Position numbers and translations under genes: made by a program | Shown here: one piece after another, positions 20,848 to 34,854 of the stretch | Position numbering within the stretch: position 1 is the first letter of the stretch | Layout: each line of letters begins with the position of its first letter | Source of the DNA: Candidatus Zambryskibacteria bacterium CG10_big_fil_rev_8_21_14_0_10_42_12 | GTDB taxonomy: Bacteria > Patescibacteriota > Minisyncoccia > Phycocordibacterales > 1-14-0-10-42-12 | Length of the DNA: 64,000 nucleotides | Reading direction: 5' to 3' | Assembly: GCA_002787695.1 (NCBI GenBank) | Contig: PCXL01000011.1 | Location: 138,250-202,249 of the forward strand | The notes under the pieces: model-generated | Database searches by the model: none | Told to the model about the DNA's origin: nothing | Seen by the model: the letters and a program-made list of their open reading frames with translations, nothing else

Positions 20848-20952
20848 AATCGGTGCCACAATGTGGTTTGCTTTCTTTTGGTTGGCTAATTCAAATCGAT
20901 TTTTTGTTAATTAGAGAGTGCCCGAGACCACGTGTGGTCCCGGGCATTGCGC

Positions 20953-21072
20953 TTAGCCGTTGTTCATCGTCAGCAGCAGTAAGACGAGTCCGAGGAAGGC
21001 AAGGAAGTTTTTGAGGATGCGTTTAGTACGGCCGATTACTGGCGGGTAGTAACGTTCGTTGACGGACATGGC
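20953..21072 (-). CDS. Candidate 39-aa hydrophobic peptide (MSVNERYYPPVIGRTKRILKNFLAFLGLVLLLLTMNNG)
   Basis: AGGAG lies 5 nt upstream of the ATG and a hairpin terminator follows (gcccgagaccac / gtggtcccgggc). Not in the ORF track because it is under 60 aa. Confidence 0.25.
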   Translation of the reverse strand, partial: AMSVNERYYPPVIGRTKRILKNFLAFLGLVLLLLTMNNG

Positions 21073-21322
21073 GGAACTCCTACTAATAGATTGAGGTTCT
21101 TCATGTATGTTGTCAAACAAAACTGTTGATATAGAAAAAAGCGTTGATTTTTGCTACACTTGCCTCGTATCTGTATTGCTCCGAGATCGCTCGCCTCGCG
21201 TCGAGGAGCTTGCGAGTCGAGGCGGGTCTAATGCTCCCATTTTGTTCAAGAGCTAAGCGATTGAATACAAAACGCAGTGCGCCGAAGCTTTAGCGGAGGC
21301 GTAGTAGGACACAGTGAAATTT

Positions 21323-21393
21323 TGCGGGATCGTCTAATGGTAGGACACCAGGTTTTGGTCCTGGGTATCTAGGTTCGAGTCCTAGTCCCGCAG
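21323..21393 (+). tRNA. tRNA-Gln (anticodon UUG)
   Basis: Manual cloverleaf: acceptor tgcggga/tcccgca with the U1-A72 pair and G73 typical of tRNA-Gln, D-arm gtct-aatggta-ggac, anticodon loop ttttggt (34-36 = TTG), T-arm ctagg-ttcgagt-cctag. It is followed by hairpin tgggatat-gac-atatccca. Confidence 0.8.
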
Positions 21394-21656
21394 CCTAAAA
21401 CAAAAGATTGGGATATGACATATCCCAAGAGTATTGTTTTACTGTAGAGACAGGACTCGAACGGCGGAGCGCACAAAGTCCGAGCATAGCAATGCGAGGG
21501 CGCGAGCCGGTGCCCAGACCTTGTATGAGTGACGACGAGTACAAGAGTCGAGGGAGAGAAGCGAAGCGGTCCTAGTCCCGCAGCAATGAACAGAAGCAAG
21601 AAATAAGTCTAATGGCCAGTCTCGCCAAAGCGTGAGCCTAGGCGGATAGGACGCTT

Positions 21657-21717
21657 GGTTTTGGTCCTGGGTATCTAGGTTCGAGTCCTAGTCCCGCAGC
21701 CTAAAACAAAAGATTGG
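21657..21717 (+). repeat. 61-bp exact direct repeat of the tRNA-Gln 3' half plus flank (ggttttggtcctgg...cccgcagcctaaaacaaaagattgg); a pseudo-tRNA attachment-site-like scar
   Basis: Identical to 21351-21412. The upstream part (gtctaatgg + 32-nt insert + aggacgcttgg) resembles the tRNA-Gln D and anticodon arms but carries mutations and lacks the acceptor 5' strand. Further tRNA-Gln fragments lie at 21569-21584 (direct) and 21462-21471 (inverted T-arm). Confidence 0.55.
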
Positions 21718-21745
21718 AATAAGTGGTATTTGATATAATAGTCAT

Positions 21746-22036
21746 ATGAAAGTACGGCACATTTTACGAGTAACACTCATTACAGGACTCATATTGCTTG
21801 TGCCTTTAGTATTGCAACTGACTATCGGTAGTGGTATAGATGGTCAAGGTTTCAACTGGAAACTGAATGACTTTGTGTTTATGGGAGGTTTGATATTTAT
21901 AGCTGGGCTTTTGATTGATGTGGCGAGAAGAAAAATGGGCAAGAATCGATTGATTGCGATTGGTGTGATTGTCGTACTGTTCCTCTGGCTCTGGGCAGAG
22001 CTTGCGGTTGGTGTGTTTACAAATTGGGGGAGTTAA
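21746..22036 (+). CDS. Hypothetical small membrane protein (3 transmembrane helices)
   Basis: 96-aa ORF with hydrophobic stretches (LITGLILLVPLVLQL; FMGGLIFIAGLLI; IGVIVVLFLWLWA). Confidence 0.4.
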   Translation: MKVRHILRVTLITGLILLVPLVLQLTIGSGIDGQGFNWKLNDFVFMGGLIFIAGLLIDVARRKMGKNRLIAIGVIVVLFLWLWAELAVGVFTNWGS

Positions 22037-22049
22037 TTTTTTAATATAT

Positions 22050-22415
22050 ATGGCTACATACGTAGATGGGTTTGTATTTTCAGTACCGAAAGATAAGCGA
22101 AACCAGTATAAGAAAATTGCGCGTGAAGCGAAAGATGTGTGGAAAAAATTTGGCGCACTCGACTATAAAGAATGCCGTGCTGACGATGTAACACCACCGT
22201 TGGTCACGTTTACATTTCCTAAAATGGCAAAGACTAAAGAAGATGAAGAGGTCTGGTTCTCTTTTATTGTTTTTAAGTCAAAAAAAGAACGTAACGAAAT
22301 AAACAAAAAAGTTATGGCATACTTTGATGAAAAATATAAAGGTAAAAATATGCCGATGCCGTTTGATATGAAGCGCTTTGCGTACGGTGGCTTTACAACA
22401 GAGGTTGAAATGTAG
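22050..22415 (+). CDS. DUF1428 (YbaA-like) family protein
   Basis: MATYVDGFVFSVPKDKRNQYKKIAREAKDVWKKFGALDYKECRADDV resembles the DUF1428 N-terminus. Start chosen at ATG 22050. Confidence 0.55.
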   Translation: MATYVDGFVFSVPKDKRNQYKKIAREAKDVWKKFGALDYKECRADDVTPPLVTFTFPKMAKTKEDEEVWFSFIVFKSKKERNEINKKVMAYFDEKYKGKNMPMPFDMKRFAYGGFTTEVEM

Positions 22416-22476
22416 AGTCTGGTAGACAAAAAATAGACCTTACATACAATGGATATGTGCGTAATTTGTTAAATGT

Positions 22477-22854
22477 ATGAAAAAGATACTTATAATTATT
22501 GTACTTATATTGGTTGTGGGCGGGTTGTGGTATGTCATGGGTAGAGGTGATAGCGCGACACCAGAAAACGCGACTGAAAATGGATCTGTAGTGAGTGGTG
22601 TAGTGATCGGAGTTGATATGGAAGGTGTGGCAGTAGATGGTCCTGCGCTTGTTATGATTGAGACGGAGGAAGGCGACGTGAAGACGATCGCGATTCCATC
22701 TATGGGAATTTTGCTCTGTGAAGCATCTCGTATTGATGATGTGTTTGCAGTAAAAGCAGGAGATCGTGTGAGAGTTCAGGGAGACATAACACCGGACGGA
22801 TACATTTTACCGTGTGAAGAGGAGGAGCATTATTTTGAAGTGAGTGCAATATAA
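22477..22854 (+). CDS. Hypothetical secreted protein
   Basis: Signal/transmembrane segment KKILIIIVLILVVGGLWYV, then an acidic, Gly/Val-rich body. Confidence 0.45.
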   Translation: MKKILIIIVLILVVGGLWYVMGRGDSATPENATENGSVVSGVVIGVDMEGVAVDGPALVMIETEEGDVKTIAIPSMGILLCEASRIDDVFAVKAGDRVRVQGDITPDGYILPCEEEEHYFEVSAI

Positions 22855-22862
22855 AAATATGT

Positions 22863-22907
22863 AAAGCACGAAAAAACCTCCTAAAATAGGAGGTTTTTTC
22901 GTGCTTT
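22863..22907 (+). terminator. Intrinsic terminator
   Basis: aaagcacgaaaaaacctcc-taaaat-aggaggttttttcgtgcttt is a long perfect stem with a T-run. Confidence 0.7.
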
Positions 22908-23876
22908 ATGGCTTTCCGAATATCTTTTTCGTATAGTGAACATATGGAAAAAGTGGCTAAACTAGGCATAAAGTGCGTACTCCATGGAAGTTTCAGAAAG
23001 CATTTTGATCTCATTCAACAAACGCGCCAGGTTTTTACGGATGCAGGCATAGAGGTTATCGCACCCAAACTGTCTGATATAGCAGGAGAAAAGGATGGTT
23101 TTGCATATCTTGAAGGAGAAGAAAACGCTGACCCAAGACTGATTGAACTTCTGTATCTCCACAATCTAAAAGATCTCGGACAAAATGGATTTAGTTATTT
23201 TGTAAATCCGGAAGGGTATATTGGAAAAAGTGTGTCGTACGAACTGGGTATTGCACAGCTCTCAAACATACGATGTTTTTTTATGGAAAACCCGAATGAT
23301 CATCCGGCTTATGTACATAAAAATTCTGTGTGGAAGCCTGAAAAACTTGCCGAATATATATTGGATAAAGGTGTACCACCCGACCCTCTCATCAAAAGAA
23401 ATGAAAAAGCACTTCATAAACTATGGGAAGATTTGATGGTGCCAGGTTCTATTGTGGCAGCAGGCGCGATGATTCAATATGAACCGAGGAAGACGACAGA
23501 TAAAAAGGAAATTCTCTTGGTAAAAACACACAAATGGGGAGACAGATATTCTATGGTGGGTGGAAAGGTGCGTCGAAATGAATTGTTTAAAGATGCTTTG
23601 TTGCGCGAAGTGAAAGAAGAAACTGGTCTTTCTGGGAAAGTTGATAGACATGTTTGTACCTTTGATCAAATAAAAAACTCCGGCTATTACAGATCAGGCA
23701 TTCAGCATATTTTTATTGATAACGTAGTAAAAGTGGACAGCAGACGAGTGACACTTAATGAAGAGGCGCAAGACTATATATGGATTACGGCAGAAGAAGC
23801 ACTGGCGTCTCTTCATATTGAACCAAATGCGCGACATACCATAGAGTTATATATAAATTTAATGCCACAACGATGA
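22908..23876 (+). CDS. Two-domain protein: N-terminal nucleoside 2-deoxyribosyltransferase-like (NDT/Rcl-like) fold fused to a C-terminal NUDIX hydrolase
   Basis: The C-terminus carries a perfect Nudix box, GGKVRRNELFKDALLREVKEETG (G-x5-E-x7-REVxEEtG). The N-terminus has VLHGSF (compare YLAGPFF) and GKSVSYELGIAQ (compare DSGTAFEIGYA), both typical of the NDT-like superfamily. The start may be 22944, since the terminator abuts 22908. Confidence 0.65.
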   Translation: MAFRISFSYSEHMEKVAKLGIKCVLHGSFRKHFDLIQQTRQVFTDAGIEVIAPKLSDIAGEKDGFAYLEGEENADPRLIELLYLHNLKDLGQNGFSYFVNPEGYIGKSVSYELGIAQLSNIRCFFMENPNDHPAYVHKNSVWKPEKLAEYILDKGVPPDPLIKRNEKALHKLWEDLMVPGSIVAAGAMIQYEPRKTTDKKEILLVKTHKWGDRYSMVGGKVRRNELFKDALLREVKEETGLSGKVDRHVCTFDQIKNSGYYRSGIQHIFIDNVVKVDSRRVTLNEEAQDYIWITAEEALASLHIEPNARHTIELYINLMPQR

Positions 23877-24072
23877 AAAATATTCTTCATAAGATTTTAA
23901 TCTGAAAATTTTATAATGGGTATGACACCAACGGATCAATAATATACATATATAAAAAGCGTTGTGTGTCTCATAAAGGGCAAACCGTTCTCGGTTTGCC
24001 CTTTATGATAGTTTTGGAAATTCCGTTAAAATATCCTGCGCAAGCCGGACCCTGTTTTGATATAATAAAGCT

Positions 24073-24366
24073 GTGCGTATCATCAAAACATATCTCGAAT
24101 ACGTAAAAGATAACCCGGAAGGGTATTGGTTTAAGAGAAAGCTTTTTGGCTGGGGTTGGACGCCTGTTACATGGCAAGGCTGGTTGATTATACTTGTATA
24201 TATAGGACTAGTGCTTGCATTTGCGTTTACCATTGATGAATCCTCATCAGATTCGGAGGTAGTATTTACTTTCATTTTGCCTGTTGTGCTACTCACCATT
24301 ACACTCATTCGTATTGGATATAAAAAAGGTGAAAAACCAAAGTGGCAATGGGGATTGCCCAAGTAA
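24073..24366 (+). CDS. Hypothetical 2-transmembrane membrane protein
   Basis: 97-aa ORF (WLIILVYIGLVLAFAF; FTFILPVVLLTITLI). An upstream hairpin at 23978-24010 (aaagggcaaaccg-ttct-cggtttgcccttt) acts as a terminator for the preceding gene. Confidence 0.4.
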   Translation: MRIIKTYLEYVKDNPEGYWFKRKLFGWGWTPVTWQGWLIILVYIGLVLAFAFTIDESSSDSEVVFTFILPVVLLTITLIRIGYKKGEKPKWQWGLPK

Positions 24367-24407
24367 GGGCAAGACTGAAGTGGTAAAAAATGGATGTATT
24401 GTAAGAA

Positions 24408-25340
24408 TTGGAAACATCAGCGTCTTATAATGTACATATGAAAAATATAAATTATATATTGGGAATTGGGGCGATAATTATTCTTACATTGATTGGATTC
24501 TTTGTGTTTTCAAATGGTTCGGCGAAGTATATATCAGAAGTAGATAGTGCTCTTGAGGATCTTGGAGAGCAATTGGCAGATGCGCAGGAAGAAATCAGTA
24601 CAGGCACACTGACGACTGATAAGGCGACAGCAATTAAAGAGAAGATTTCAGGTAGACTGACAATAATCAATAATTCAATTGCCGGCGCATCACGTAATAC
24701 ACAATTGAATACCGAACAAAGACTGCAGATTGCAGCATCTCTTACAAAAATGAAAAACATGCTCGAACAGTATATTGAGACACTGTCGGTGATTGACCAG
24801 AGTGCGGGACGTAGTGATGAACGATTGACACAGTCGTTTAATGAAGTAGTACAGACGTTTGAAGAGCATGTAGAAGAGATTGAGCGTGAAGCGGAGGCGG
24901 AAGCGATTGAGGGTGATGGTGGTGAAGAAGAAAATAACGAGGAAGATCTTGGACAGATAGTACCAGAAGAAGGTTTTGAGGGTGAGGCCGATCCGTCGGT
25001 GATGACTCTGGGAATGACTACGTGGAATTGGATTCAAACTACATACAACAATGGTGATGTTGTAGAGCCGGACACGGCAGGAGAATTTACCCTTATTTTT
25101 AATGATGATGGCACATTTTCTGCGACGACGGATTGTAACGGAGTTGGCGGGAATTATACAACTGGAGATGGGCAACAACTGACATTTGGTGAGATGGTTT
25201 CAACACTAATGTTCTGTGAAGGATCGCAAGAAACGGAGTTTAGAGAAATGCTTGAAAATACATCTTCGTATTCGTTCACGTCTCGTGGCGAATTGGTCCT
25301 CGATCTCAAGTTTGATAGCGGATCAGTGATTTTCCGATAA
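24408..25340 (+). CDS. Membrane-anchored META-domain (HslJ-like, DUF306) protein
   Basis: N-terminal transmembrane helix, a coiled-coil/acidic linker, and a C-terminal TDCNGVGGNYTTGDGQQLTFGEMVSTLMFC segment typical of META domains. The likely start is MKNINY at 24438. Confidence 0.6.
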   Translation: METSASYNVHMKNINYILGIGAIIILTLIGFFVFSNGSAKYISEVDSALEDLGEQLADAQEEISTGTLTTDKATAIKEKISGRLTIINNSIAGASRNTQLNTEQRLQIAASLTKMKNMLEQYIETLSVIDQSAGRSDERLTQSFNEVVQTFEEHVEEIEREAEAEAIEGDGGEEENNEEDLGQIVPEEGFEGEADPSVMTLGMTTWNWIQTTYNNGDVVEPDTAGEFTLIFNDDGTFSATTDCNGVGGNYTTGDGQQLTFGEMVSTLMFCEGSQETEFREMLENTSSYSFTSRGELVLDLKFDSGSVIFR

Positions 25341-25382
25341 TACGCGTATTACATCGTTAAAGAATTCGGTATCCTTTGCAGG

Positions 25383-26036
25383 ATGTCGAATTCTTTGTAT
25401 CCTAAATACATGAAAAAGAATTATCTCATCACAGTCCTTGTGCTGTTTATTGTGGTATTAGCATTTAATAAATTTACAGAGCCACAAGAAGAAGTTCCTA
25501 GTGCCGATCTTATGAGAAACGGAACGTATACTATTAATGACGAGATGCGTCGCCGAGTCACTTTAGATGATTTCGGGGGAATACAGTATGAATTTCGAAC
25601 AGAACCAAATGGTTACATACTTGTAGAGCAAGGACTCGTAGAAGGTGATGATGCGGACCTTCAAAAAATATATGTTCTCATGTTAGAAAAAGACTACGCG
25701 GAATTTACCGACAGTACAGAACCACGCGAAGGACCGCCGGCAATCACTATGTATATTTTTGAAAATTCGCAAATCATGTTTCCGTTACAATGGGCACAAA
25801 ATCATGCAATCTATTCAAACATAAATACTGCAGCACTTGATGTAGCAGAGGTGACGGTGGGAGGAGCAAATACGATTCGGTATACTGCAGATGGATTGTA
25901 TATGACGGACAATGTAGTGGTTGCACATGGAGGGTATGTATATGTGATATCTGGCGCACATCTTGCAAATAATGATGTGTATCAGCAAGGATTTGAAAAT
26001 TTGGTAAAGAGTATAAAGTTTGTCGCAACACCTTAA
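25383..26036 (+). CDS. Hypothetical secreted protein
   Basis: N-terminal transmembrane/signal segment LITVLVLFIVVLAF and no recognised domain. Confidence 0.45.
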   Translation: MSNSLYPKYMKKNYLITVLVLFIVVLAFNKFTEPQEEVPSADLMRNGTYTINDEMRRRVTLDDFGGIQYEFRTEPNGYILVEQGLVEGDDADLQKIYVLMLEKDYAEFTDSTEPREGPPAITMYIFENSQIMFPLQWAQNHAIYSNINTAALDVAEVTVGGANTIRYTADGLYMTDNVVVAHGGYVYVISGAHLANNDVYQQGFENLVKSIKFVATP

Positions 26037-26063
26037 CAGTTGGAAGGCACTGTAAACTAGTAT

Positions 26064-26187
26064 GGTCCCGTTAGAGATCACGGACGCTTGAAGGTAAAAT
26101 ATTGGATATGTATGATTACAAAAAGTTTGTTATTAATTAACTTTAGGTCGAGGACAATACGGTCCGCGTCCTATCTCTAACGGGATG
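26064..26187 (+). promoter_or_regulatory. Copy A of a ~125-nt conserved structured element: terminal inverted repeats tcccgttagagat..cggacgc / gcgtcctatctctaacggga, whose 3' arm contains the start codon of the downstream gene
   Basis: Long-range stem of about 20 bp, an internal ggac-loop-gtcc mini-hairpin just before the 3' arm, a conserved ttaattaa in the loop closing a ~10-codon uORF (MYDYKKFVIN*), and the ATG of the 26185 gene embedded in ...taacgggATGa. A second copy lies at 48269-48390. Confidence 0.5.
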
Positions 26188-26403
26188 ACAAAAAATAAAA
26201 ATATAATTGTAAGCCTTGGTAAAAATGTTTCTATTGTCGCAGGAATTGTACTTATCTGGAGAGGTATTTGGTATACGCTTGATAAAATAGATCTGGCCTT
26301 GTTTGGAGGTAGTCATGCATGGACAGCTATTGGTGGCATTATACTAGGGCTCATCATTCTTTATATCCCTGATGGCGATTGGCACGAAATTGAGAAACTT
26401 TAG
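26185..26403 (+). CDS. Hypothetical 72-aa 2-transmembrane membrane protein
   Basis: VSIVAGIVLIWRGIWY and WTAIGGIILGLIILYI. Its start codon sits inside the 3' arm of structured element A. Confidence 0.45.
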   Translation: MTKNKNIIVSLGKNVSIVAGIVLIWRGIWYTLDKIDLALFGGSHAWTAIGGIILGLIILYIPDGDWHEIEKL

Positions 26404-26420
26404 TATGAGCAATATGAACT

Positions 26421-26460
26421 AAGCCACAAAAAGAGCCTGACGAAGCCGTTTTTGTGGCTT
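26421..26460 (+). terminator. Intrinsic terminator
   Basis: aagccacaaaaa-gagcctgacgaagccg-tttttgtggctt. Confidence 0.65.
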
Positions 26461-26499
26461 ATTGGATACTGATCGCTCTAGTTTGGTACAATATAATAT

Positions 26500-27402
26500 A
26501 TGAAAAACGCAATTATTACATTGGTAGTCATTATTCTTATTGGCTTGGGGGTCTATATGTTTACTAGAGATAATGGAGAAGTGGTCGTACCGGAGGGCAA
26601 TGAAATTACAACTGAAAATGGTACACAATCAGAACAGGTACAAGATGAGACACGAACTGTTATCGGTCAGTCTGTAGAGGGTCGTGACATTGTTGCATAT
26701 CACTATACGTCGGATGCAACGACAACACCTGATACGAATGTATTGTTTGTCGGAGGTATTCACGGTGGATACGAATGGAATACAGCACTCGTTGCATTTG
26801 AGGCGATGGACTACTTTGAAAATAATCCAAATAATATTCCAGACAATGTTCGCGTGACAGTTATCCCTGTATTGAACCCAGATGGTCTTAACAAAATCGT
26901 AGGGACCAGCAGTCAATTCACAAAGGCGTATGTACGAAGTGGCGTAGATACAGTACCCGGCAGATTTAATGCAAACAATGTAGATCTCAACCGTAACTTT
27001 GATTGTGATTGGCAGGCGAAAGGTACGTGGCAGGACAAAACGGTGGATGCGGGAGACAGTGTGTTTTCTGAACCAGAAAGCCGCGCTATTCGTGATTATG
27101 TAAATGCAAATAACCCGGATGCAGTAATTGTCTGGTACAGCGCAGCGGGTGGGGTGTTTGCATCAAGTTGTCACAACGGCGTTCTTCCTGAGACACTCGC
27201 ACTTACCAATGCCTTTGCAAAAGCTTCTGGTTACAGAGCATACGAAGAATTCAACTTCTACGAAATTACCGGAGATATGGTGAACTGGCTTGCAAAAGAA
27301 AATGTACCTGCAATCAGTGTCCTTCTTACCACACATACAGATACAGAATGGAGTAAAAACCAAAAAGGTATTGATGCAATCTTAGAATATTACGCAGAAT
27401 AG
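26500..27402 (+). CDS. M14-family zinc carboxypeptidase-like protein (paralog 1), membrane-anchored
   Basis: HGGYEWN (HxxE zinc ligands), NRNFDCDWQ (the NRNF arginine motif) and FSEPESRAIRDY (substrate-binding) motifs, with an N-terminal transmembrane helix. Confidence 0.7.
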   Translation: MKNAIITLVVIILIGLGVYMFTRDNGEVVVPEGNEITTENGTQSEQVQDETRTVIGQSVEGRDIVAYHYTSDATTTPDTNVLFVGGIHGGYEWNTALVAFEAMDYFENNPNNIPDNVRVTVIPVLNPDGLNKIVGTSSQFTKAYVRSGVDTVPGRFNANNVDLNRNFDCDWQAKGTWQDKTVDAGDSVFSEPESRAIRDYVNANNPDAVIVWYSAAGGVFASSCHNGVLPETLALTNAFAKASGYRAYEEFNFYEITGDMVNWLAKENVPAISVLLTTHTDTEWSKNQKGIDAILEYYAE

Positions 27403-28272
27403 ATGAATCTTACTTCTAAAACAAAATTTGGTGTAGTCGCAATCCTGCTAATAATAATTGGCGGGATTGTGTGGTTTGTAAATACACGCCCGGAGCCGAT
27501 TGTGGTGCCGGAAGTCGTGGAAGAGCCGACATATTCAGAACAGGTAATTGGCACATCGGTTGAAGGGCGCGAGATCGAAGCTATTTCATTTGGAAATGGC
27601 GAGAGGAAGCTACTTTTTGTGGGAGGTATTCATGGCGGATACGAGTGGAATAGTGTGTATTTGGCATATCGTGCCATTGATTATCTCAAGGAAAATCCAA
27701 TGATAGTACCAGCGGATGTGCAAGTTACTATTATTCCGAATCTCAACCCTGACGGACTATATATAGGTATTGGTGCTGAAGGGCGCTTTGATCCAAACAC
27801 AACGCCTTCTATAGAAGAAACTGTTTCGGGCAGGTTCAATGCAAATGACGTTGATCTCAATCGCAATTTTGATTGCAAATGGCAGCCATCTGCAACATGG
27901 CGAAGTGCAACTATCAGCGCTGGTGATGCGCCATTTTCAGAACCGGAAGCGAGAATATTGCGAGACTATATTTTAGAGACAAATCCAGACCTCGTAACAT
28001 TTTGGCACAGTCAAGGGGGAGCGGTGTATGGGGCGGAGTGTGAAGAAGAAATTTTGCCGGCAACCAAACAAGCTGTGGATCTGTACGCAACAGCATCAGG
28101 ATACAGTGGGCACGATGTTTTCGACGCCTATCCGGTAACGGGCGATGCCGAAGCGTGGCTTGCATCAATCGGTATCCCGGCGATTACGGTAGAGCTCGAA
28201 ACTCATGAGACTATTGAATGGAATCAAAATTTAGCGGGAATCAAAGCGTTGTTGCAATATTACGGAAAATAG
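27403..28272 (+). CDS. M14-family zinc carboxypeptidase-like protein (paralog 2), membrane-anchored
   Basis: Same motifs as the upstream paralog (GGIHGGYEWN, DLNRNFDCKWQ, FSEPEARILRDY). The two are tandem and abutting (stop at 27402, start at 27403). Confidence 0.7.
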   Translation: MNLTSKTKFGVVAILLIIIGGIVWFVNTRPEPIVVPEVVEEPTYSEQVIGTSVEGREIEAISFGNGERKLLFVGGIHGGYEWNSVYLAYRAIDYLKENPMIVPADVQVTIIPNLNPDGLYIGIGAEGRFDPNTTPSIEETVSGRFNANDVDLNRNFDCKWQPSATWRSATISAGDAPFSEPEARILRDYILETNPDLVTFWHSQGGAVYGAECEEEILPATKQAVDLYATASGYSGHDVFDAYPVTGDAEAWLASIGIPAITVELETHETIEWNQNLAGIKALLQYYGK

Positions 28273-28278
28273 AATTGT

Positions 28279-30021
28279 ATGCAACTCCTTTTCGCTGAGG
28301 TTAAAAAATATAAGAAGACGCTTGCGGGCGCGCTTGTGCTTGCGACTGTCAACCAGGTTTTTTCTTTGCTTGATCCGCAGATTTTCCGAATTATTATTGA
28401 TAACTATGCGACAAGAGTTACAGAGCTTACGAGGCAAGAATTTCTAACTGGAGTACTCCTTATGCTCCTCGCCTACATGGGTGTTGCATTTATTTCTCGG
28501 ACTGCAAAAGCGTTTCAAGACTACTATACGAATGTCATGACCCAGCGAGTTGGGACCAACCTCTACGCGCAAAGTGTTGCGCATGCATTTTCACTTCCGT
28601 TTTCCGTTTTTGAAGACGAGAGGAGTGGAGAGCTTCTCAATAAATTGCAGAAGGCGCGTACCGATACTCAGACACTCATTCAAAATTTGGTGAATATTTT
28701 GTTTCTCTCAGTTATTGGTATTGTTTTTGTGCTTATTTACGCGGCGACTATACATTGGCTCATTGGACTTGTATTTTTCTTGATGATTCCAACACTCGGA
28801 TTCATTATTTTTTTCTTGAGCAAGAAGATAAAGGAAGCGCAGGCAATGATCGTGAAAGAAACTGCTGCACTTTCAGGGTCTACGACGGAGACACTTCGTA
28901 ATGTAGAGCTGGTAAAGAGTTTAGGGCTTGAGGGGCAAGAAATCGGACGACTAAACTCTGTAAACGAAAAAATTCTTGACCTTGAGCTCAAGAAAGTGCA
29001 AATGGTGAGAAAGCTCGATTATATCCAGGGCACACTCATCAATGCGCTCCGGAGCCTTGTATTGTTTGTCATCCTCTGGCTTGTCTTTACACAGGTGGTC
29101 TCAATCGGTGAGTTTTTGACACTGTGGATCTATACATTTTTCGTCTTCGGGCCGCTCTCTATGATAGGCCAGGTGACCGCTTCATATCAGGAGGCCAAGG
29201 CGAGTTTGGAACAGCTTGAAGCAGTATTTAAGATAAAGCCCGAACCAGTGCCGGCTGATGCGGTGCGTATCGAACACGTGGAGTCTGTGGCTTACGAACA
29301 GGTATCACTCTCCTATGAAGAGAAAGGCAAAGCGGCACTAGATGGTATTAGTCTCAACATCAAAGCGGGAGAGACGGTGGCGTTTGTTGGCCCATCTGGA
29401 TCCGGAAAAAGTACCATGGTGAAATTACTTGCAGGATTGTATACACCTACGGAAGGTACGATACGTATCAATGATACTGACATGCGCAAGCTTGATATCA
29501 CCAGTCTCCGCCATAAAGTGGGACTTGTGGTGCAAGAAACGCAGTTGTTTGCCGGAACACTTCGAGAAAATTTGTTGTTTGTAAAACCAGACGCAACAGA
29601 TGAGCGGTGTTTGGAAGTTTTGAAAGCGGCACAAGCGCAGAGCATTCTAGACCGCGGAGAAGGACTCGATACGGTTATTGGTGAAGGAGGTATCAAACTT
29701 TCTGGTGGAGAAAAGCAGCGTCTTGCTATTGCGCGAGCACTTTTGCGTGATCCTGATTTGATCGTCTTTGATGAAGCAACATCGAGCCTTGATTCAATCA
29801 CAGAAAAATCTATCACCGATACCATTAAAAAAATTGAAGAGACGCATCCGAATATGATCAAGGTGCTTGTGGCACACAGACTTTCAACGATTATGCATGC
29901 CGATCGGATTTACGTATTTGAAAAAGGGAAAATTGTAGAGATGGGCCGACATGATGAACTTGTTCAACGCGGCGGCCTTTACAACGCCCTCTGGCGCGAA
30001 CAGATAGCAGCAAACTCATAG
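28279..30021 (+). CDS. ABC transporter, fused permease/ATPase (MsbA/exporter type)
   Basis: Six-transmembrane N-terminal domain, then Walker A GPSGSGKST, the LSGGEKQRLAIARA signature, Walker B LIVFDEATSSLD and an H-loop. Confidence 0.9.
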   Translation: MQLLFAEVKKYKKTLAGALVLATVNQVFSLLDPQIFRIIIDNYATRVTELTRQEFLTGVLLMLLAYMGVAFISRTAKAFQDYYTNVMTQRVGTNLYAQSVAHAFSLPFSVFEDERSGELLNKLQKARTDTQTLIQNLVNILFLSVIGIVFVLIYAATIHWLIGLVFFLMIPTLGFIIFFLSKKIKEAQAMIVKETAALSGSTTETLRNVELVKSLGLEGQEIGRLNSVNEKILDLELKKVQMVRKLDYIQGTLINALRSLVLFVILWLVFTQVVSIGEFLTLWIYTFFVFGPLSMIGQVTASYQEAKASLEQLEAVFKIKPEPVPADAVRIEHVESVAYEQVSLSYEEKGKAALDGISLNIKAGETVAFVGPSGSGKSTMVKLLAGLYTPTEGTIRINDTDMRKLDITSLRHKVGLVVQETQLFAGTLRENLLFVKPDATDERCLEVLKAAQAQSILDRGEGLDTVIGEGGIKLSGGEKQRLAIARALLRDPDLIVFDEATSSLDSITEKSITDTIKKIEETHPNMIKVLVAHRLSTIMHADRIYVFEKGKIVEMGRHDELVQRGGLYNALWREQIAANS

Positions 30022-30156: not shown

Positions 30157-30903
30157 ATGAAAACATTTTATATTATTTTAGGTATATTACTCGTAGTATT
30201 AGGTGGTTTTTGGCTATTGGGTAGTAGGGAGGCTGGGGACGATACTCAGAACATAACGACAGAATTAACAGAATATTTTGCAGAGAGAATGACAACCCTT
30301 GGCGTACGTGGAGGCATGATGCCGATTGAAGGATTTGATGCAGGGCTACTTATAGGAGCATTTCCAGGATTGATAAAAGCTGACTTTCAGGACGTGGAGA
30401 CATTTGAAGGCCACTATGAGATTCAGGCGGGAGAATTGGTATTTGTTCGAGATCAAGAACAGCCAATTTCTTCAGCTGAACGAACAGTCTCTAATGAAGG
30501 ATATGGTACATTACTGCAAAACCTGTCTACACGTCTTGATATGACTGTAAACTCTGAGAGTGATATTGATGCAATTATTGATACTATTAATATCAGTGAG
30601 ATAATTGAAACAAAGATTGATCAAGGTGCATCCGCCTACAGCATCACAATAGTTCCTCAGGAAGTACTAGAGGACAGCAGGTGTCCAATAGATGTTGAAT
30701 GTATTCAAGCAGGAACAGTGAGGGTAAAAGCGGTGGTAGAGAGTGATACAGGATCTGCAGAATATATATTTGAACCATTTAGTACGCTTACAATTGATGC
30801 GATAGATGTAACTCTTGTGCAGGTTGCACCCATGCCGGAAAGTGGAGTGACGATTGATCAAGATACATACGCATTTGTCTTTGAAGTTGTTGATAGAACG
30901 TAG
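30157..30903 (+). CDS. Hypothetical secreted protein
   Basis: N-terminal transmembrane/signal segment YIILGILLVVLGGFWLL and no recognised domain. Confidence 0.4.
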   Translation: MKTFYIILGILLVVLGGFWLLGSREAGDDTQNITTELTEYFAERMTTLGVRGGMMPIEGFDAGLLIGAFPGLIKADFQDVETFEGHYEIQAGELVFVRDQEQPISSAERTVSNEGYGTLLQNLSTRLDMTVNSESDIDAIIDTINISEIIETKIDQGASAYSITIVPQEVLEDSRCPIDVECIQAGTVRVKAVVESDTGSAEYIFEPFSTLTIDAIDVTLVQVAPMPESGVTIDQDTYAFVFEVVDRT

Positions 30904-30980
30904 AACCATACACCGCGCACGCGGTGTATAGTCCTAACTTCTTCATGAAAAATTCATATGAATAGCATTAATATAAAGGT

Positions 30981-31652
30981 ATGCGCATAGCACTTGTTGA
31001 AGATGAGGAAAAATTGGCAGACGTATTAAGTAATGGACTGGAACAAAAAGGGTATGCAGTAGATGTGTTTCATCACGGAGATAAAGCACTTAAGCATATG
31101 TCTGTTAACCATGCAGATTATGATGTAATGCTCCTGGATTTAATGTTGCCTGGTGCAGATGGCTTAACGATATGTAAGTCTCTTCGTGATGTGGGATCCA
31201 CGATACCAATTTTGATTCTCACTGCGCGTGACGAGATTGACACCAAGGTTGATCTGTTGATGACAGGTGCAGACGATTATATTGTTAAACCTTTTTCATT
31301 CAATGAGCTTGTGGCTCGTATCGCGGCAATTTCACGTAGACCTACGCATATGTCTCCTACAAAGCTTGTGGTAGGAGGTATTGTATTAGATCCCAAGACA
31401 CGTACCGTCAAAAAGGATGGTAAAGAAGTGCCACTTACACTAAAAGAGTTTGTGATGCTCGAATATTTTATGAAAAGACCAAATGAAGTCGTAAACAGAG
31501 AAGATCTATTGACTCATTTATGGGATTTTAATTTTTCATCATTTAGCAATGTAGTCGATGTCCATGTTAAAAACCTTAGGAAAAAGCTTGGTGATGATAA
31601 CCAAGACATATTGGAGACAATTCGCGGGGTGGGTTATCGCCTTAAAGCATAA
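30981..31652 (+). CDS. Two-component response regulator, OmpR/PhoB family
   Basis: Receiver domain (LVEDEE, LLDLMLPGADG, TARDE, DDYIVKPF) plus a winged-helix DNA-binding domain (VVDVHVKNLRKKLG...TIRGVGYRL). Confidence 0.9.
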   Translation: MRIALVEDEEKLADVLSNGLEQKGYAVDVFHHGDKALKHMSVNHADYDVMLLDLMLPGADGLTICKSLRDVGSTIPILILTARDEIDTKVDLLMTGADDYIVKPFSFNELVARIAAISRRPTHMSPTKLVVGGIVLDPKTRTVKKDGKEVPLTLKEFVMLEYFMKRPNEVVNREDLLTHLWDFNFSSFSNVVDVHVKNLRKKLGDDNQDILETIRGVGYRLKA

Positions 31653-32727
31653 ATACGGCACCGATCCATTTTTCAAGACTGAATTTAATGTTGTCAGTTT
31701 ACAAATATTATTTGCGACATGTTTAATCATCATTGTTGCAATTTATTTCAATAGTCTCTTTCAAGATACTACGGAGTCATTATTGGAAAATATTATTTCT
31801 GTTGTAGAAGGGAGACAAAATGTTGATTCTGCGAGCATCATCGAATTATCGCGGCAAGAAATGAAAAAAAGTCTCTTTTCTTTTTTTGGTGTTGCTATAG
31901 CACTGACAGTTGTATTTAGTTATGTGATCGGACGTATTACGCTCAAGCCAGCTCGAACTGCTCTCAAAACGCAAAAACGGTTTATTAGTGATATTGCACA
32001 CGAACTCAGGACACCAATTTCTGTGATTAAGACGAATATTGAAGTAACGCTCATTGATCAAAACATTGACCCGCGTATTAAAGCAATGCTTGAAAGTAAT
32101 ATTGAAGAACTTGACCGGACATCAGAAATTATCAATAACCTTCTCAGTTTTAACCAATTAATTCGTCCAGGTAAGATGCGGTTTGCAGAGGTGCATGTGG
32201 GACACGTAATCGATAAAAGTGTGGCACACCTTAAGCAGTTGGCAGCGAAGAAGCATATTGAAATCACTGTACATAAAGTTGAATCGTGCGTTGTTTTTGG
32301 TAATGCTACGGCAATTGAGCAAATAGTGACTAATTTGGTAAAAAATGCGATTACGTATACTTCTGATGGTGGTTTTATAAAAATAGTGGTGGAACCGTAT
32401 TATGGAGAAAACGTACTTATTTCGGTGGAGGATACTGGGGTAGGTATATCACAAGATGATTTGGCGCATATATTTGAACCATTTTATCGTGCGGAGCGAT
32501 CACGAAACAAAAATATAGGTTCTGGCGGCAGTGGTCTTGGTCTCACAATCGTGAGTGAGCTTGTAAAGTTACATTCAGGTAGAATTTCAATTCGTAGTTA
32601 TCCTAATAAAGGTACAACTGTTAACGTGCTGTTGCCTATTAATAATGCTACGCATCTACGCATTAAGGAAAAAGTTAACCAGAAAAATGAAGTTACGGTT
32701 GATTTTTATAATACACACAATACGTAA
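31558..32727 (+). CDS. Sensor histidine kinase (HisKA + HATPase_c), membrane-bound
   Basis: H-box ISDIAHELRTPISVI, N-box LVKNAITYT, and G boxes DTGVGI and GGSGLGLTIV, with two N-terminal transmembrane helices. The start is uncertain (the ORF overlaps the response-regulator 3' end); a later Met such as 31591 is possible. Confidence 0.85.
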   Translation: MSMLKTLGKSLVMITKTYWRQFAGWVIALKHKYGTDPFFKTEFNVVSLQILFATCLIIIVAIYFNSLFQDTTESLLENIISVVEGRQNVDSASIIELSRQEMKKSLFSFFGVAIALTVVFSYVIGRITLKPARTALKTQKRFISDIAHELRTPISVIKTNIEVTLIDQNIDPRIKAMLESNIEELDRTSEIINNLLSFNQLIRPGKMRFAEVHVGHVIDKSVAHLKQLAAKKHIEITVHKVESCVVFGNATAIEQIVTNLVKNAITYTSDGGFIKIVVEPYYGENVLISVEDTGVGISQDDLAHIFEPFYRAERSRNKNIGSGGSGLGLTIVSELVKLHSGRISIRSYPNKGTTVNVLLPINNATHLRIKEKVNQKNEVTVDFYNTHNT

Positions 32728-32944
32728 CTTTGTTTCATATTTTCTTCACGCACTATCTTTATAATAAGAAACAGAACAGATGGTGCACTCTGTAAGTTCC
32801 TATCTATTACTTGACTAATAAATTACCAAATTACTTATTGGTTTTATAATATTCTTTATATAATATGAAATACGTAAACACTATGGTGTGTGCGTGTGGT
32901 GTTTTAGAAGGTGGTGTGCATATATACACAATTAGCAATTTGTA

Positions 32945-32982
32945 GGGGAGGTCACGCGTTGTTCGCCACGCGTGACCTCCCC
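32945..32982 (+). terminator. Very stable 14-bp perfect hairpin (ggggaggtcacgcg / cgcgtgacctcccc) followed by gcttttata, about 70 nt upstream of typA
   Basis: Perfect GC-rich inverted repeat with a 10-nt loop and a T-rich tail on the + strand only. It is either the terminator of an upstream transcript or small RNA, or an attenuator in the typA leader. Confidence 0.55.
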
Positions 32983-33054
32983 GCTTTTATATACTCCTTC
33001 CTAAAATTGCATAAATATGCTTTAATTCACCTCTTTGTGCAAAAGCACTAAGGG

Positions 33055-34854
33055 GTGAATTACATTATGGAAATCAGAAACATAGCCATTATTGCTCACG
33101 TTGACCACGGTAAGACTACGCTTACTGATGCTTTAATGCGTGAGACCGGAATGGTTGAAGAAGGAGTGAGTATGGACTCAAATACGCTTGAAAAGGAGCG
33201 CGGTATTACGATTTACTCAAAAAATACCTCAATCAACTACAAAGGGACGAAGATAAATATTGTTGATACACCAGGACACGCCGACTTTAGTTCAGAGGTT
33301 GAGCGTGTACTCCGGTCTATCGATTCTGTCGTGTTGCTTGTTGACGCACAGGAAGGTCCTATGCCACAGACTCGGTTTGTGCTCAAAAAATCTCTTGAAC
33401 TCGGCCATAAGCCTATTGTCGTACTTAACAAAATAGACAAACCGGCCGCAGACCCAAAACGAGTGCATGACGAAATCCTAGAGCTCTTTTTTGATCTGGG
33501 AGCAAGTGAGAACCAGGTAGAATTTACTACGGTCTATGCTATTGGCCGCGATGGTGTAGCGATGAAAAACATCGACGATGAACGAAAGAATCTCGAACCA
33601 TTACTCGATGTGATTCTTGAAGAAGTTCCTGCGGCTTCAGGTAAGAATGATGCGCCTCTCCGTGCCCAACCATTTAACCTCGGATACGATAACTTCCTTG
33701 GACGTCTCGCTATTGCACGTGTCTATGAAGGAACACTCTCCGTCGGAGATCAGGTATTTAGGCACAAAGTTTCTGGAGGTGTTGAGAAAGGAAAAATCAC
33801 GAAATTATTTACCTTTGAAGGGCTTACTCGAAGAGAAGTTAATACTGTCGAATCGGGTGATATTGTAATGATCGCTGGTATACCAGAGGTTTATATTGGA
33901 GATACTATTTCAAAAGACGAGAACACAGAACCGCTACCAGCTATTTCGGTTGATGAACCAACCATTGCGCTGACATTTTTAGTAAACGATTCTCCATTTG
34001 CAGGACGAGAAGGCAAATTTGTCACTGGTCGACAGATTCGTGAACGACTGGAAAAAGAACTTGAAGTAAATGTCGGACTCAAAGTATTTTTCATAGATGA
34101 TGGGATTAAGGTGTTGGGTCGTGGTGAACTTCATATTGCAATTTTACTTGAAAACATGAGCCGTGAAGGGTATGAGGTACAAGTCTCACAACCACAAGTT
34201 ATTATTAAAAACATTCTCGGTGTACGAAAAGAGCCGTTTGAAGAAGTGACTATTGATGTACCAGCGGGTGTCGAAGGATCTATCATTGAAAAGCTTTCAA
34301 AGCGAGGATCTATCATGACCAATATGAAGCAGGATGGAAACGTCGTGCGCCTGACCTTTGAAGGACCAACACGAGGACTTCTCGGATATCGTGGTCAGTT
34401 TATTGTTGATACAAAAGGTGAAGGTATTTTTGCGTCTCGTGTGATTGGCTTTAAACCATACGCAGGTGTTATCGAGAAACGACAAGTTGGCTCTATGATA
34501 TCTATGGAAAATGGTAAGGCGCTTGCTTTTGCACTCGACAACCTTCAGACACGCGGAACACTTTATATCGAACCGGGAACAGAAGTATACGAAGGTATGG
34601 TTGTAGGTAACACCGTCAAAGGAGAAGAAATGACAGTGAATCCAACGAAAGGAAAACAGCTCACTAACATGCGTGCATCTGGGTCTGACGGCTCTGTTTA
34701 TCTCAATCCTGCACTTAAAATAACTATTGAACGAGGACTTGAGATCATGTCTGATGACGAATATCTCGAAGTGACTCCTAAAAACGTCCGCCTCCGTAAA
34801 AAATATCTCACCGAAACAGAGCGTAAGAAGCATGAGAGGAAGAGTGAAGTATAG
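33055..34854 (+). CDS. typA: Translational GTPase TypA/BipA
   Basis: IAIIAHVDHGKTTLTDALM, DTPGHADF and NKIDK G-motifs. The domain order and 599-aa length match BipA. The start may be 33067 (MEIRN). Confidence 0.9.
   Translation: MNYIMEIRNIAIIAHVDHGKTTLTDALMRETGMVEEGVSMDSNTLEKERGITIYSKNTSINYKGTKINIVDTPGHADFSSEVERVLRSIDSVVLLVDAQEGPMPQTRFVLKKSLELGHKPIVVLNKIDKPAADPKRVHDEILELFFDLGASENQVEFTTVYAIGRDGVAMKNIDDERKNLEPLLDVILEEVPAASGKNDAPLRAQPFNLGYDNFLGRLAIARVYEGTLSVGDQVFRHKVSGGVEKGKITKLFTFEGLTRREVNTVESGDIVMIAGIPEVYIGDTISKDENTEPLPAISVDEPTIALTFLVNDSPFAGREGKFVTGRQIRERLEKELEVNVGLKVFFIDDGIKVLGRGELHIAILLENMSREGYEVQVSQPQVIIKNILGVRKEPFEEVTIDVPAGVEGSIIEKLSKRGSIMTNMKQDGNVVRLTFEGPTRGLLGYRGQFIVDTKGEGIFASRVIGFKPYAGVIEKRQVGSMISMENGKALAFALDNLQTRGTLYIEPGTEVYEGMVVGNTVKGEEMTVNPTKGKQLTNMRASGSDGSVYLNPALKITIERGLEIMSDDEYLEVTPKNVRLRKKYLTETERKKHERKSEV

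Follow-up and report, generated by a model that had tools for sequence, protein, structure and literature searches.

A conserved fusion of NDT/DNPH1-like and Nudix domains in CPR bacteria and DPANN archaea: a candidate bifunctional nucleotide-degrading enzyme

The window analyzed here, a stretch of 64,000 nucleotides from Candidatus Zambryskibacteria bacterium CG10_big_fil_rev_8_21_14_0_10_42_12, a member of the CPR or Patescibacteria, contains seven small ORFs (g1-g7), all on the plus strand, at the coordinates where an earlier note on this DNA had placed them, and gene calls made independently on other contigs agree with their delineation (Table 1). The features ascribed to their products were likewise recovered, namely three hydrophobic segments in g1, two in g5 and a single N-terminal one in each of g3, g6 and g7, along with the DUF1428 and META domains of g2 and g6 respectively. 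The products of g1-g3 are small membrane, secreted or DUF proteins specific to this lineage, g4 encodes a two-domain fusion protein, and g5, g6 and g7 run on into a conserved backbone with two M14 carboxypeptidases and an ABC transporter. One relative retains g5, the META-domain gene (g6) in synteny, g7, the M14 peptidases and the ABC transporter, and has no fusion at that place; other small genes are found there instead of g1-g4, and its contig ends 2.7 kb upstream.

Table 1. Features of the g1-g7 region, in window coordinates
Feature	Coordinates	Strand	Description
tRNA-Gln (UUG), intact	21323..21395	+	ARAGORN; Rfam 60.9 bits
tRNA-Gln 3' remnants	21569..21721	+	16-nt copy at 21569-21584; 75-nt copy (95%) at 21647-21721
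g1	21746..22036	+	96 aa; three hydrophobic segments; no family match
g2	22050..22415	+	121 aa; DUF1428 (Pfam E 2.4e-30)
g3	22477..22854	+	125 aa; N-terminal signal/anchor, one hydrophobic segment
Hairpin g3/g4	22862..22908		23-bp perfect palindrome with A-run and U-run flanks; -38.4 kcal/mol, z -9.1
g4 (fusion)	22944..23876	+	310 aa from M13 (likely start); annotated from 22908, 322 aa
g4 N-terminal NDT/DNPH1-like domain	22944..23453	+	GSFRK loop after strand 1; Glu100 codon 23241-23243
g4 C-terminal Nudix domain	23460..23876	+	Pfam E 7e-13; PDB profile match NudI, E 1.3e-9
Hairpin 3' of g4	23971..24008	+	Terminator-like, 17-bp stem; z -6.6
g5	24073..24366	+	97 aa; two TM segments; 55% homologue in the relative's backbone
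g6	24438..25340	+	300 aa; N-terminal anchor, acidic coiled-coil-like region, C-terminal META (Pfam E 1e-15)
Hairpin 3' of g6	25358..25396	+	-22.9 kcal/mol, z -5.3; covers an upstream alternative g7 ATG
g7	25410..26036	+	208 aa (likely start); N-terminal anchor, one hydrophobic segment
g7-g8 long-range inverted repeat	26065..26186	+	Stem of ~14+6 bp closing ~90 nt; z -3.6

Strong intrinsic terminators had been claimed between each of these genes, but significant hairpins are present only after g3, g4 and g6. The stem following g7 is weaker and long-range, with no matching Rfam family, g1 and g2 lie 13 nt apart, and in the g2-g3 and g5-g6 spacers folding is no stronger than in shuffled sequences (z -0.6 and -0.4). 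The palindrome between g3 and g4 is terminator-like in both directions, and the annotated ATG of g4 falls within it. Given that this ATG sits in a terminator stem and that homologues start at M13, the fusion likely begins at 22944 rather than at 22908. The start of g7 is likewise likely to be the downstream one, at 25410.

The tRNA-Gln scars described upstream of g1 are genuine, with two partial copies of the 3' end against a chance expectation of approximately zero. A pseudo-tRNA overlapping the longer copy (21630-21698) reaches 19.4 bits where the threshold is 29, Rfam shows nothing besides tRNA in the dnaX-g1 spacer, and the linkage of dnaX to tRNA-Gln recurs in nine related metagenome loci. 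However, the idea that these scars mark a small-gene island is not supported. The remnants enclose just ~230 bp upstream of g1-g7, and all three copies of the tRNA 3'-end repeat lie at 21379-21721; no further copy occurs in the 64 kb window to bracket the genes. No integrase or recombinase family is found among these genes, the GC content of the seven genes (0.37-0.42) lies inside the surrounding range (0.36-0.48), and g5-g7 belong to the conserved backbone. Relatives recovered by a metagenome scan with DnaX, at about 50% identity, were too distant for an island comparison.

The C-terminal domain of g4 is a bona fide Nudix hydrolase, as had been proposed, with a PF00293 match of 49.2 bits (gathering score 21.1) and a perfect Nudix box of the form GX5EX7REUXEEXGU (GKVRRNELFKDALLREVKEETGL, 23562-23630). 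Across 40 orthologues G207, E213, R221, E225 and E226 of this box are invariant and E222, G228 and L229 nearly so. The best PDB profile match, spanning the whole domain, is the nucleoside triphosphatase NudI, which also leads the top NCBIfam matches, all of these being NTP-type Nudix families. The family thus resembles the NudI-like house-cleaning (d)NTP pyrophosphohydrolases, but has its own motifs (LLVKTHKW, FDQIKNSGYY and IEPNARHT), and g4 is no NudI orthologue, since its 33.7 bits fall far below the cut-off of 95 for the NudI equivalog NF012016.

Structural comparison supports the NDT-like fold proposed for the N-terminal domain of g4, which is a three-layer α/β Rossmannoid domain superposable on NDT, Rcl and MilB. 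A glutamate (Glu100) in an E-x-G motif after strand 4 aligns with the nucleophile in the ELG motif of the NDTs 7o62 and 6evs and with Glu93 of Rcl (hhalign probability 81%, E 1.3e-5). This residue is invariant across 117 diverse relatives, as are P41 and G94, and likewise in a set of 34; the domain has the NDT-superfamily fold with the catalytic Glu. In Rcl the catalytic triad is Tyr13/Asp69/Glu93, and the loop GSIRGG binds the 5'-phosphate. The corresponding consensus loop in the g4 family is GSFRK, with G15 and S16 invariant, its likeness to GSIRGG being judged by eye outside the hhalign alignment. The Tyr13 equivalent is not conserved, with Val or Ile at this position (by eye) beside a near-invariant His14, and the conserved acidic residue E68 is offset by three positions from Asp69 in the hhalign alignment. 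A full-length AF2 model built with 40 close orthologues reached a pLDDT of 74.9, with values below 50 in the catalytic region, and domain packing is unreadable in it.

At the sequence level the N-terminal domain is divergent. Neither PF05014 nor any other Pfam NDT model matches the g4 protein of the window at E<0.01, trimmed-profile matches to PDB NDTs are weak (E 0.2-1.4), a single-sequence PDB search detects the Nudix domain alone, and a first profile search was dominated by MazG columns. Identity to DNPH1/Rcl, a 2'-deoxynucleoside 5'-phosphate N-hydrolase, and to the CMP/hmCMP hydrolases MilB and BcmB is ~13-20%, and the g4 family is distinguished from them by an added β-hairpin and the motifs GIEVLAP, NPEGYIGKS and DHPAY. 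Moreover, DNPH1 and MilB are single-domain proteins, whereas in g4 this domain is covalently fused to a pyrophosphatase; the NDTs (PF05014; 6evs, 7o62 and 1f8x) act on nucleosides and also lack such a fusion. With the g4 family, the NDT/DNPH1 superfamily gains a divergent branch that is invisible to Pfam.

Examination of the 117 distant relatives of the N-domain recovered PF05014 matches in 30 (E<1e-3), the three displayed scores being 17.8-22.8 bits, under the 28.8-bit cut-off. The fusion partners among the 117 were MazG (20), NUDIX (5), MazG-like (2) and NTPase_I-T (1), the last being an ITPase/XTPase-type family, and in all fusions inspected (seven with MazG and one with NUDIX) the partner follows the N-domain on its C-terminal side. 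A regulator of the NrtR type is the partner in one relative, and the conflict-system domain SMEK (SMEK_N) in another. MazG and NUDIX are recognized superfamilies of house-cleaning NTP pyrophosphatases (PMC12887539). The fusion of the N-domain in the same order to MazG, Nudix and, in one protein, an ITPase/XTPase-type domain suggests a coupled reaction from NTP to NMP and then to base and sugar phosphate.

Orthologues of the complete fusion, with 50-74% identity, were detected in no fewer than 110 GTDB species belonging to the Patescibacteria and the DPANN archaea. They do not occur throughout the CPR, having been detected in about 110 of 185,579 species genomes, which is a pattern-limited lower bound. 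The best 120 matches are all full-length orthologues (64-74% identity), those from DPANN archaea show 50-56% identity, and the gene is retained even in complete genomes of 0.69-0.78 Mb. Its syntenic partners depend on the lineage, being ArgRS and CTP synthase, MreB and holB, or nrdB-nrdA, and within lineages its divergence tracks that of its syntenic housekeeping neighbors. The commonest neighboring Pfam families are housekeeping or nucleotide-related, with MreB, holB, RNR, aminoacyl-tRNA synthetases and CTP synthase among the neighbors. The high identity between classes raised the possibility of recent horizontal spread, but this is largely rejected, the tree being broadly congruent with taxonomy and divergence following the syntenic neighbors; one old transfer between bacteria and archaea is still implied. 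Literature searches yielded no account of an enzyme in which an NDT-like domain is fused to Nudix or MazG, nor of this family in CPR or DPANN. Among ultra-small symbiotic bacteria and archaea, g4 represents a strongly conserved, uncharacterized fusion enzyme.

These architectural and contextual observations lead us to propose, with a probability of roughly 55%, that g4 is a bifunctional nucleotide-degrading enzyme converting a triphosphate to free base, sugar phosphate and pyrophosphate. The NudI-like Nudix domain would first hydrolyze a (d)NTP to the monophosphate and pyrophosphate, and the DNPH1/MilB/NDT-like domain would then use Glu100 to cut the N-glycosidic bond of the monophosphate, releasing the base and (deoxy)ribose 5-phosphate. 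The predicted net reaction, (d)NTP + 2 H2O -> base + sugar 5-phosphate + PPi, would irreversibly remove the nucleotide from the pool, with base and sugar passing to salvage or central metabolism. For CPR bacteria and DPANN archaea, which live on scavenged nucleotides, such an activity might serve to clean the pool or to catabolize nucleotides. In humans the nucleotide sanitizers DCTPP1 (MazG-type) and DNPH1 are directly coupled, and follow the logic that is proposed here, in which an aberrant dNTP is converted to a dNMP that is destroyed by the N-hydrolase. The N-domain-MazG fusions pair the domain types of DCTPP1 and DNPH1 in one polypeptide, and g4 might likewise represent a natural single-polypeptide form of this logic. 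However, the human proteins are separate enzymes, while those described here are fused and prokaryotic. Kept at such identity across CPR and DPANN in genomes of 0.7 Mb, and with its N-domain independently fused to several kinds of NTP pyrophosphatase, this protein of about 300 aa is an assayable candidate for maintaining a clean, balanced nucleotide pool.

In a more specific and doubtful proposal, ultra-small episymbionts would use the fusion as a lifestyle-linked "quarantine" enzyme, which CPR and DPANN would share through ancient inter-domain transfer. Nucleotides scavenged from hosts could bring methylated, hydroxymethylated, oxidized or phage-hypermodified bases into DNA and RNA building, and a single protein with the two domains joined head to tail might pull the aberrant (d)NTPs from the pool and destroy the monophosphate, thereby blocking its re-phosphorylation. 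In a variant of this proposal the N-domain would swap bases on dNMPs, which, if true, would constitute a new means of dNTP pool balancing without de novo synthesis.

More generally, the N-domain might move deoxyribosyl(-5-phosphate) between bases for pool balancing, with the Nudix domain supplying the monophosphate donor. True NDTs perform such a transfer with nucleosides, and sequence does not separate transfer from hydrolysis. However, the known members of the superfamily acting on NMPs (DNPH1, MilB and BcmB) are hydrolases, and the fusion partners are irreversible house-cleaning pyrophosphatases that better fit disposal, making base exchange unlikely. Alternatively, the N-domain could hydrolyze NAD+ as a TIR-like glycohydrolase, leaving ADP-ribose for the Nudix domain to cleave. 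This reading is similarly improbable: NDT, MilB and Rcl all outscore every TIR as matches to the N-domain, and no TIR family is present among the 12 families listed for its relatives, 30 of which match PF05014. On the Nudix side the nearest match is NudI, that to an ADP-ribose pyrophosphatase in the PDB being marginal (E 0.009). ADPRase-type Nudix domains are marked by a Pro ~16 residues past the box, but no Pro occurs in the 20 residues following that of g4. Further, the MazG and NTPase_I-T partners of the relatives use NTPs, not ADP-ribose.

The earlier note had raised a candidate defense or toxin function; in this reading g4 would deplete (d)NTPs upon infection from a tRNA-adjacent island. 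NDT/DrHyd/TIR-like and Nudix domains are indeed found in conflict systems (PMC9503650). Also compatible with this are the position of g4 ~1.2 kb downstream of the tRNA-Gln remnants, the absence of g1-g4 from the corresponding place in the relative, the less than universal distribution of the fusion and the SMEK_N domain fused to one N-domain relative. The sole PADLOC match of g4 itself is a weak one to the candidate system PDC-S07, in the generic Nudix region (26.6 bits, E 9e-7). However, PADLOC applied to 135 immediate neighbors in 75 loci returned essentially other Nudix domains only, and searches of IMG/VR and of GenBank phages turned up no relatives of the fusion. The gene stands without a partner gene, sensor or regulatory domain, and its locus shows no downstream att repeat, integrase or GC shift. 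Together with the housekeeping neighborhoods, the largely vertical, syntenic inheritance and the retention in highly reduced genomes, this makes defense very unlikely. The note had named conserved homologues in syntenic housekeeping surroundings as grounds against its reading, and this is largely what is seen. The combination of a neighboring tRNA with nucleotide-acting domains gave no sign of defense here, which counsels caution in similar cases.

The view of g1-g7 as a functional operon or envelope module including the fusion, as the co-oriented, closely spaced genes and the membrane or secretion signals in five of the seven might suggest, is scarcely credible: the window neighbors do not co-occur with the fusion at 80 other loci save for one g5-like protein (locus L029), its orthologues occur in genomes without the other six genes, strong terminators flank g4 on both sides as a stand-alone gene, and the relative keeps the g5-g7 backbone without it. 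The seven genes thus form no single system or unit. Ten homologues of g7 were recovered, all lineage-restricted, and in relatives g7 is syntenic with the M14 peptidases.

The product of the fourth gene (g4; residue numbers from the annotated 322 aa) combines an N-terminal NDT/DNPH1-like domain (the N-domain) with a C-terminal Nudix domain. A phmmer search of 1.84 billion representatives with residues 13-182 recovered 497 relatives of the N-domain, many of them stand-alone and 130-180 aa long. Pfam gave no match for the N-terminal half of g4 itself, and 30 of 117 relatives matched PF05014 (E<1e-3). Listed for the N-domain are the CMP/hmCMP hydrolase MilB (10.1), the uncharacterised protein 1t1j (10.0), Rcl, i.e. 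DNPH1 (9.9), and YtoQ (9.9). P41, G94 and E100 are invariant in all 117 relatives, and G15 and S16 in a trimmed set of 34. The putative catalytic glutamate E100 lines up with the ELG nucleophile of NDTs and, in an hhalign comparison (probability 81%, E 1.3e-5) for which the rat Rcl sequence had been checked against PDB 2khz, with Glu93 of Rcl. The NDT-like fold predicted earlier is confirmed. By eye, the GSFRK loop of the fusion, after strand 1, is similar to the GSIRGG loop of Rcl, a part of the 5'-phosphate site in that enzyme, and may play a like role. The C-terminal domain carries a perfect Nudix box, as had been read from the sequence, and its best match is the NudI nucleoside triphosphatase (40-sequence profile, E 1.3e-9, whole domain); it is thus NudI-like, yet falls far below the NudI equivalog cut-off.

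The recurrent pyrophosphatase-type fusion partners of the N-domain are the strongest clue to its function. Among the 117 relatives it is fused to MazG in 20, NUDIX in five, a MazG-like domain in two and NTPase_I-T in one, and the partner is C-terminal to the N-domain in all eight fusions inspected (seven MazG, one NUDIX). MazG and NUDIX have unrelated folds and a common activity, the conversion of (d)NTP to (d)NMP and PPi. The characterised NDT-fold enzymes acting on monophosphates (DNPH1, MilB and BcmB) split the base from the sugar phosphate. Given this activity shared by the partners, and the removal of the base by the monophosphate-acting enzymes, we propose that the fusion might catalyze two steps, for disposal or salvage, that together would yield base, (deoxy)ribose 5-phosphate and PPi. 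Its substrates would be nucleotides, and its role may be to keep the nucleotide pool clean, to break nucleotides down for carbon or to balance the pool. Alternatively, and less probably, the N-domain might perform base exchange rather than hydrolysis; the sequence does not tell the two apart. The possibility that the fusion processes NAD+/ADPR is disfavored, because the N-domain ranks NDT over TIR, the Nudix domain is NudI-like, the fusion lacks the ADPRase proline and the N-domain relatives carry MazG partners. In the proposed two-step reaction the enzyme kinds are otherwise known, and what is new is the fusion and a divergent subfamily; MazG and NUDIX both count among the four superfamilies recognised as house-cleaning (PMC12887539). 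Two further relatives, the pair P0245 / P0201, show other architectures: one joins the N-domain to NUDIX and an NrtR winged helix, as in a regulator, and the other, of 769 aa, has an N-terminal SMEK_N and a C-terminal N-domain, as in a conflict system. The occurrence of the NrtR and SMEK_N architectures implies that the N-domain family has been put to use in different biological contexts.

A hypothetical protein from Candidatus Zambryskibacteria bacterium CG10_big_fil_rev (CPR/Patescibacteria) matches the g4 product at 100% identity. The best 120 database matches, named from Paceibacteria, Daviesbacteria, Sungbacteria, Nealsonbacteria and others, are all full-length (283-368 aa, nearly all 296-340) and, the self-hit aside, show 64-74% identity. 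Scanning one genome per GTDB species confirmed at least 110 fusion loci, a pattern-limited lower bound, and among the carriers are complete genomes (0.69 and 0.78 Mb). DPANN carriers (Woesearchaeota, Nanoarchaeota, Parvarchaeota) have 50-56% identity; in a neighbor-joining tree the archaeal fusions are monophyletic, and Saccharimonadia-, Paceibacteria- and Uhrbacteria-labelled sequences form mostly separate clades. Within syntenic groups the pairwise identity of the fusion tracks that of its neighbors (73% versus 46-76%, 81% versus 60-92%, 68% versus 63-70% and 59% versus 63-64%), which indicates vertical inheritance under strong constraint. Two contigs of one Nanoarchaeota MAG (L071 and L072; JAUYDG01) each bear a fusion copy and may represent paralogs within one DPANN genome. 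Two fusion contigs labelled Binatia and Gammaproteobacteria (L017 and L063) have 63-66% GC, unusual for CPR; mis-binning, Patescibacteria with high GC or a rare transfer beyond CPR could explain them.

The synteny of the fusion is lineage-specific: it lies between ArgRS and CTP synthase in six loci, where DnaG and an RNase T-like gene are also close by, between MreB and holB in four, and beside nrdB-nrdA in three, and the most recurrent neighbor family occurs in at most 11 of 81 loci. The commonest Pfam families among 135 immediate neighbors are NUDIX, MreB, DNA pol III delta', RNR small chain, ArgRS and CTP synthase, and the two closest homologs (72%) have small accessory enzymes around them or lie close to Mur ligase, RuvA and S20. 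This housekeeping context, the vertical inheritance and the absence of partners contradict the suggestion of the earlier note that the fusion is a candidate defense or toxin function. PADLOC, run on the 135 neighbors, returned essentially other Nudix domains only, and neither IMG/VR nor GenBank phages yielded phage or viral relatives. In the window, the genes around the fusion code for small envelope proteins of an ordinary, lineage-specific kind.

The seven + strand ORFs proposed between 21746 and 26036 (g1-g7) were all recovered, and the same gene calls were made independently on two other contigs bearing these genes. Pfam agrees on DUF1428 for g2, META for g6 and NUDIX for g4, and a hydrophobicity scan found three hydrophobic segments in g1, two in g5, and one apiece, at the N-terminus, in g3, g6 and g7. 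Terminators had been posited between all genes, which holds only in part: hairpins far more stable than shuffled sequences follow g3, g4 and g6 (z -9.1, -6.6 and -5.3), and nothing stands out in the spacers g2-g3 and g5-g6. The g1-g2 spacing is 13 nt. A single seven-gene operon is contradicted by the terminators flanking g4 and by the absence of the window neighbors from the 80 fusion loci of other genomes, save one g5-like match in locus L029. The hairpin upstream of g4 has the predicted shape of a bidirectional terminator, and the database-annotated ATG of g4 (22908) lies inside its 3' arm, at the last base-paired position. Since the orthologs begin at the equivalent of M13, the true start is likely to be 22944. 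An Rfam search with the inverted repeat between g7 and g8 (the 72-aa gene 3' of g7) found no family.

Structural features around the gene set (window positions)
Feature	Position	Remarks
tRNA-Gln	21323-21395	
tRNA-Gln 3' partial copy, 16 nt	21569-21584	
tRNA-Gln 3' partial copy, 75 nt, 95%	21647-21721	includes 20 nt downstream flank
Palindromic hairpin, perfect 23 bp	22862-22908	-38 kcal/mol; A-run one side, U-run other
Long-range inverted repeat, ~20 bp in two blocks closing ~90 nt	26065-26186	between g7 and g8; z -3.6

The tRNA-Gln repeats enclose only ~230 bp of non-coding DNA, all upstream of g1. The 75-nt copy, offset 306 nt downstream with the 16-nt copy falling between, is a degenerate, sub-threshold pseudo-tRNA (19.4 bits). 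The ~230 bp could be what is left of an integrated element that was excised or has decayed. In other samples, two contigs with these genes start 58-88 nt upstream of g1; therefore the assemblies break at the tRNA-Gln repeat. The dnaX/tRNA-Gln spacer (20848-21322), with no convincing ORF and no Rfam match, measures 475 bp versus only 20-85 nt in several relatives. The dnaX-tRNA-Gln linkage is kept in nine more distant relatives, which are too divergent to inform on downstream content.

The notion of a seven-gene island is not supported: there is no compositional anomaly across the gene set, no recombinase among the genes and no further copy of the tRNA-Gln 3' end, downstream or elsewhere, in the 64 kb window. 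It is not a unit, because g5-g7 belong to a conserved backbone and the neighbors, the g5-like match in L029 aside, do not accompany the fusion in the 80 other loci. Just ten g7 homologs were found among 5.8 billion protein clusters. On three contigs bearing one of 56% identity (L098-L100), a g5 homolog (55%) is followed by three genes that the window lacks, one of them for an ECF sigma factor, then META (41%), g7 (56%), two M14 peptidases (72% and 73%) and an ABC transporter (85%), with BipA (94%) and a DEAD helicase (83%) farther along. In a further contig, L101, the order is g7, a DUF6653 gene, a 72-aa gene and both M14 peptidases. The gene order of L098-L101 thus places g5-g7 in a conserved backbone. 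Only g1-g4 differ from the related contig, which has MliC-like, PF06983 and glyoxalase genes at the same place and stops 2.7 kb upstream. The block conserved in relatives (window 24073-30021), namely g5-META-g7-(g8)-tandem M14 carboxypeptidase paralogs-ABC exporter, may serve this lineage as a module for the envelope or for processing peptidoglycan peptides. Beyond it, the ~2.1 kb at 30900-33070 (ORFs 30981-31652 and 31558-32727), between a 248-aa gene and BipA, have no counterpart in L098, where the homologs of these two genes are 83 nt apart.
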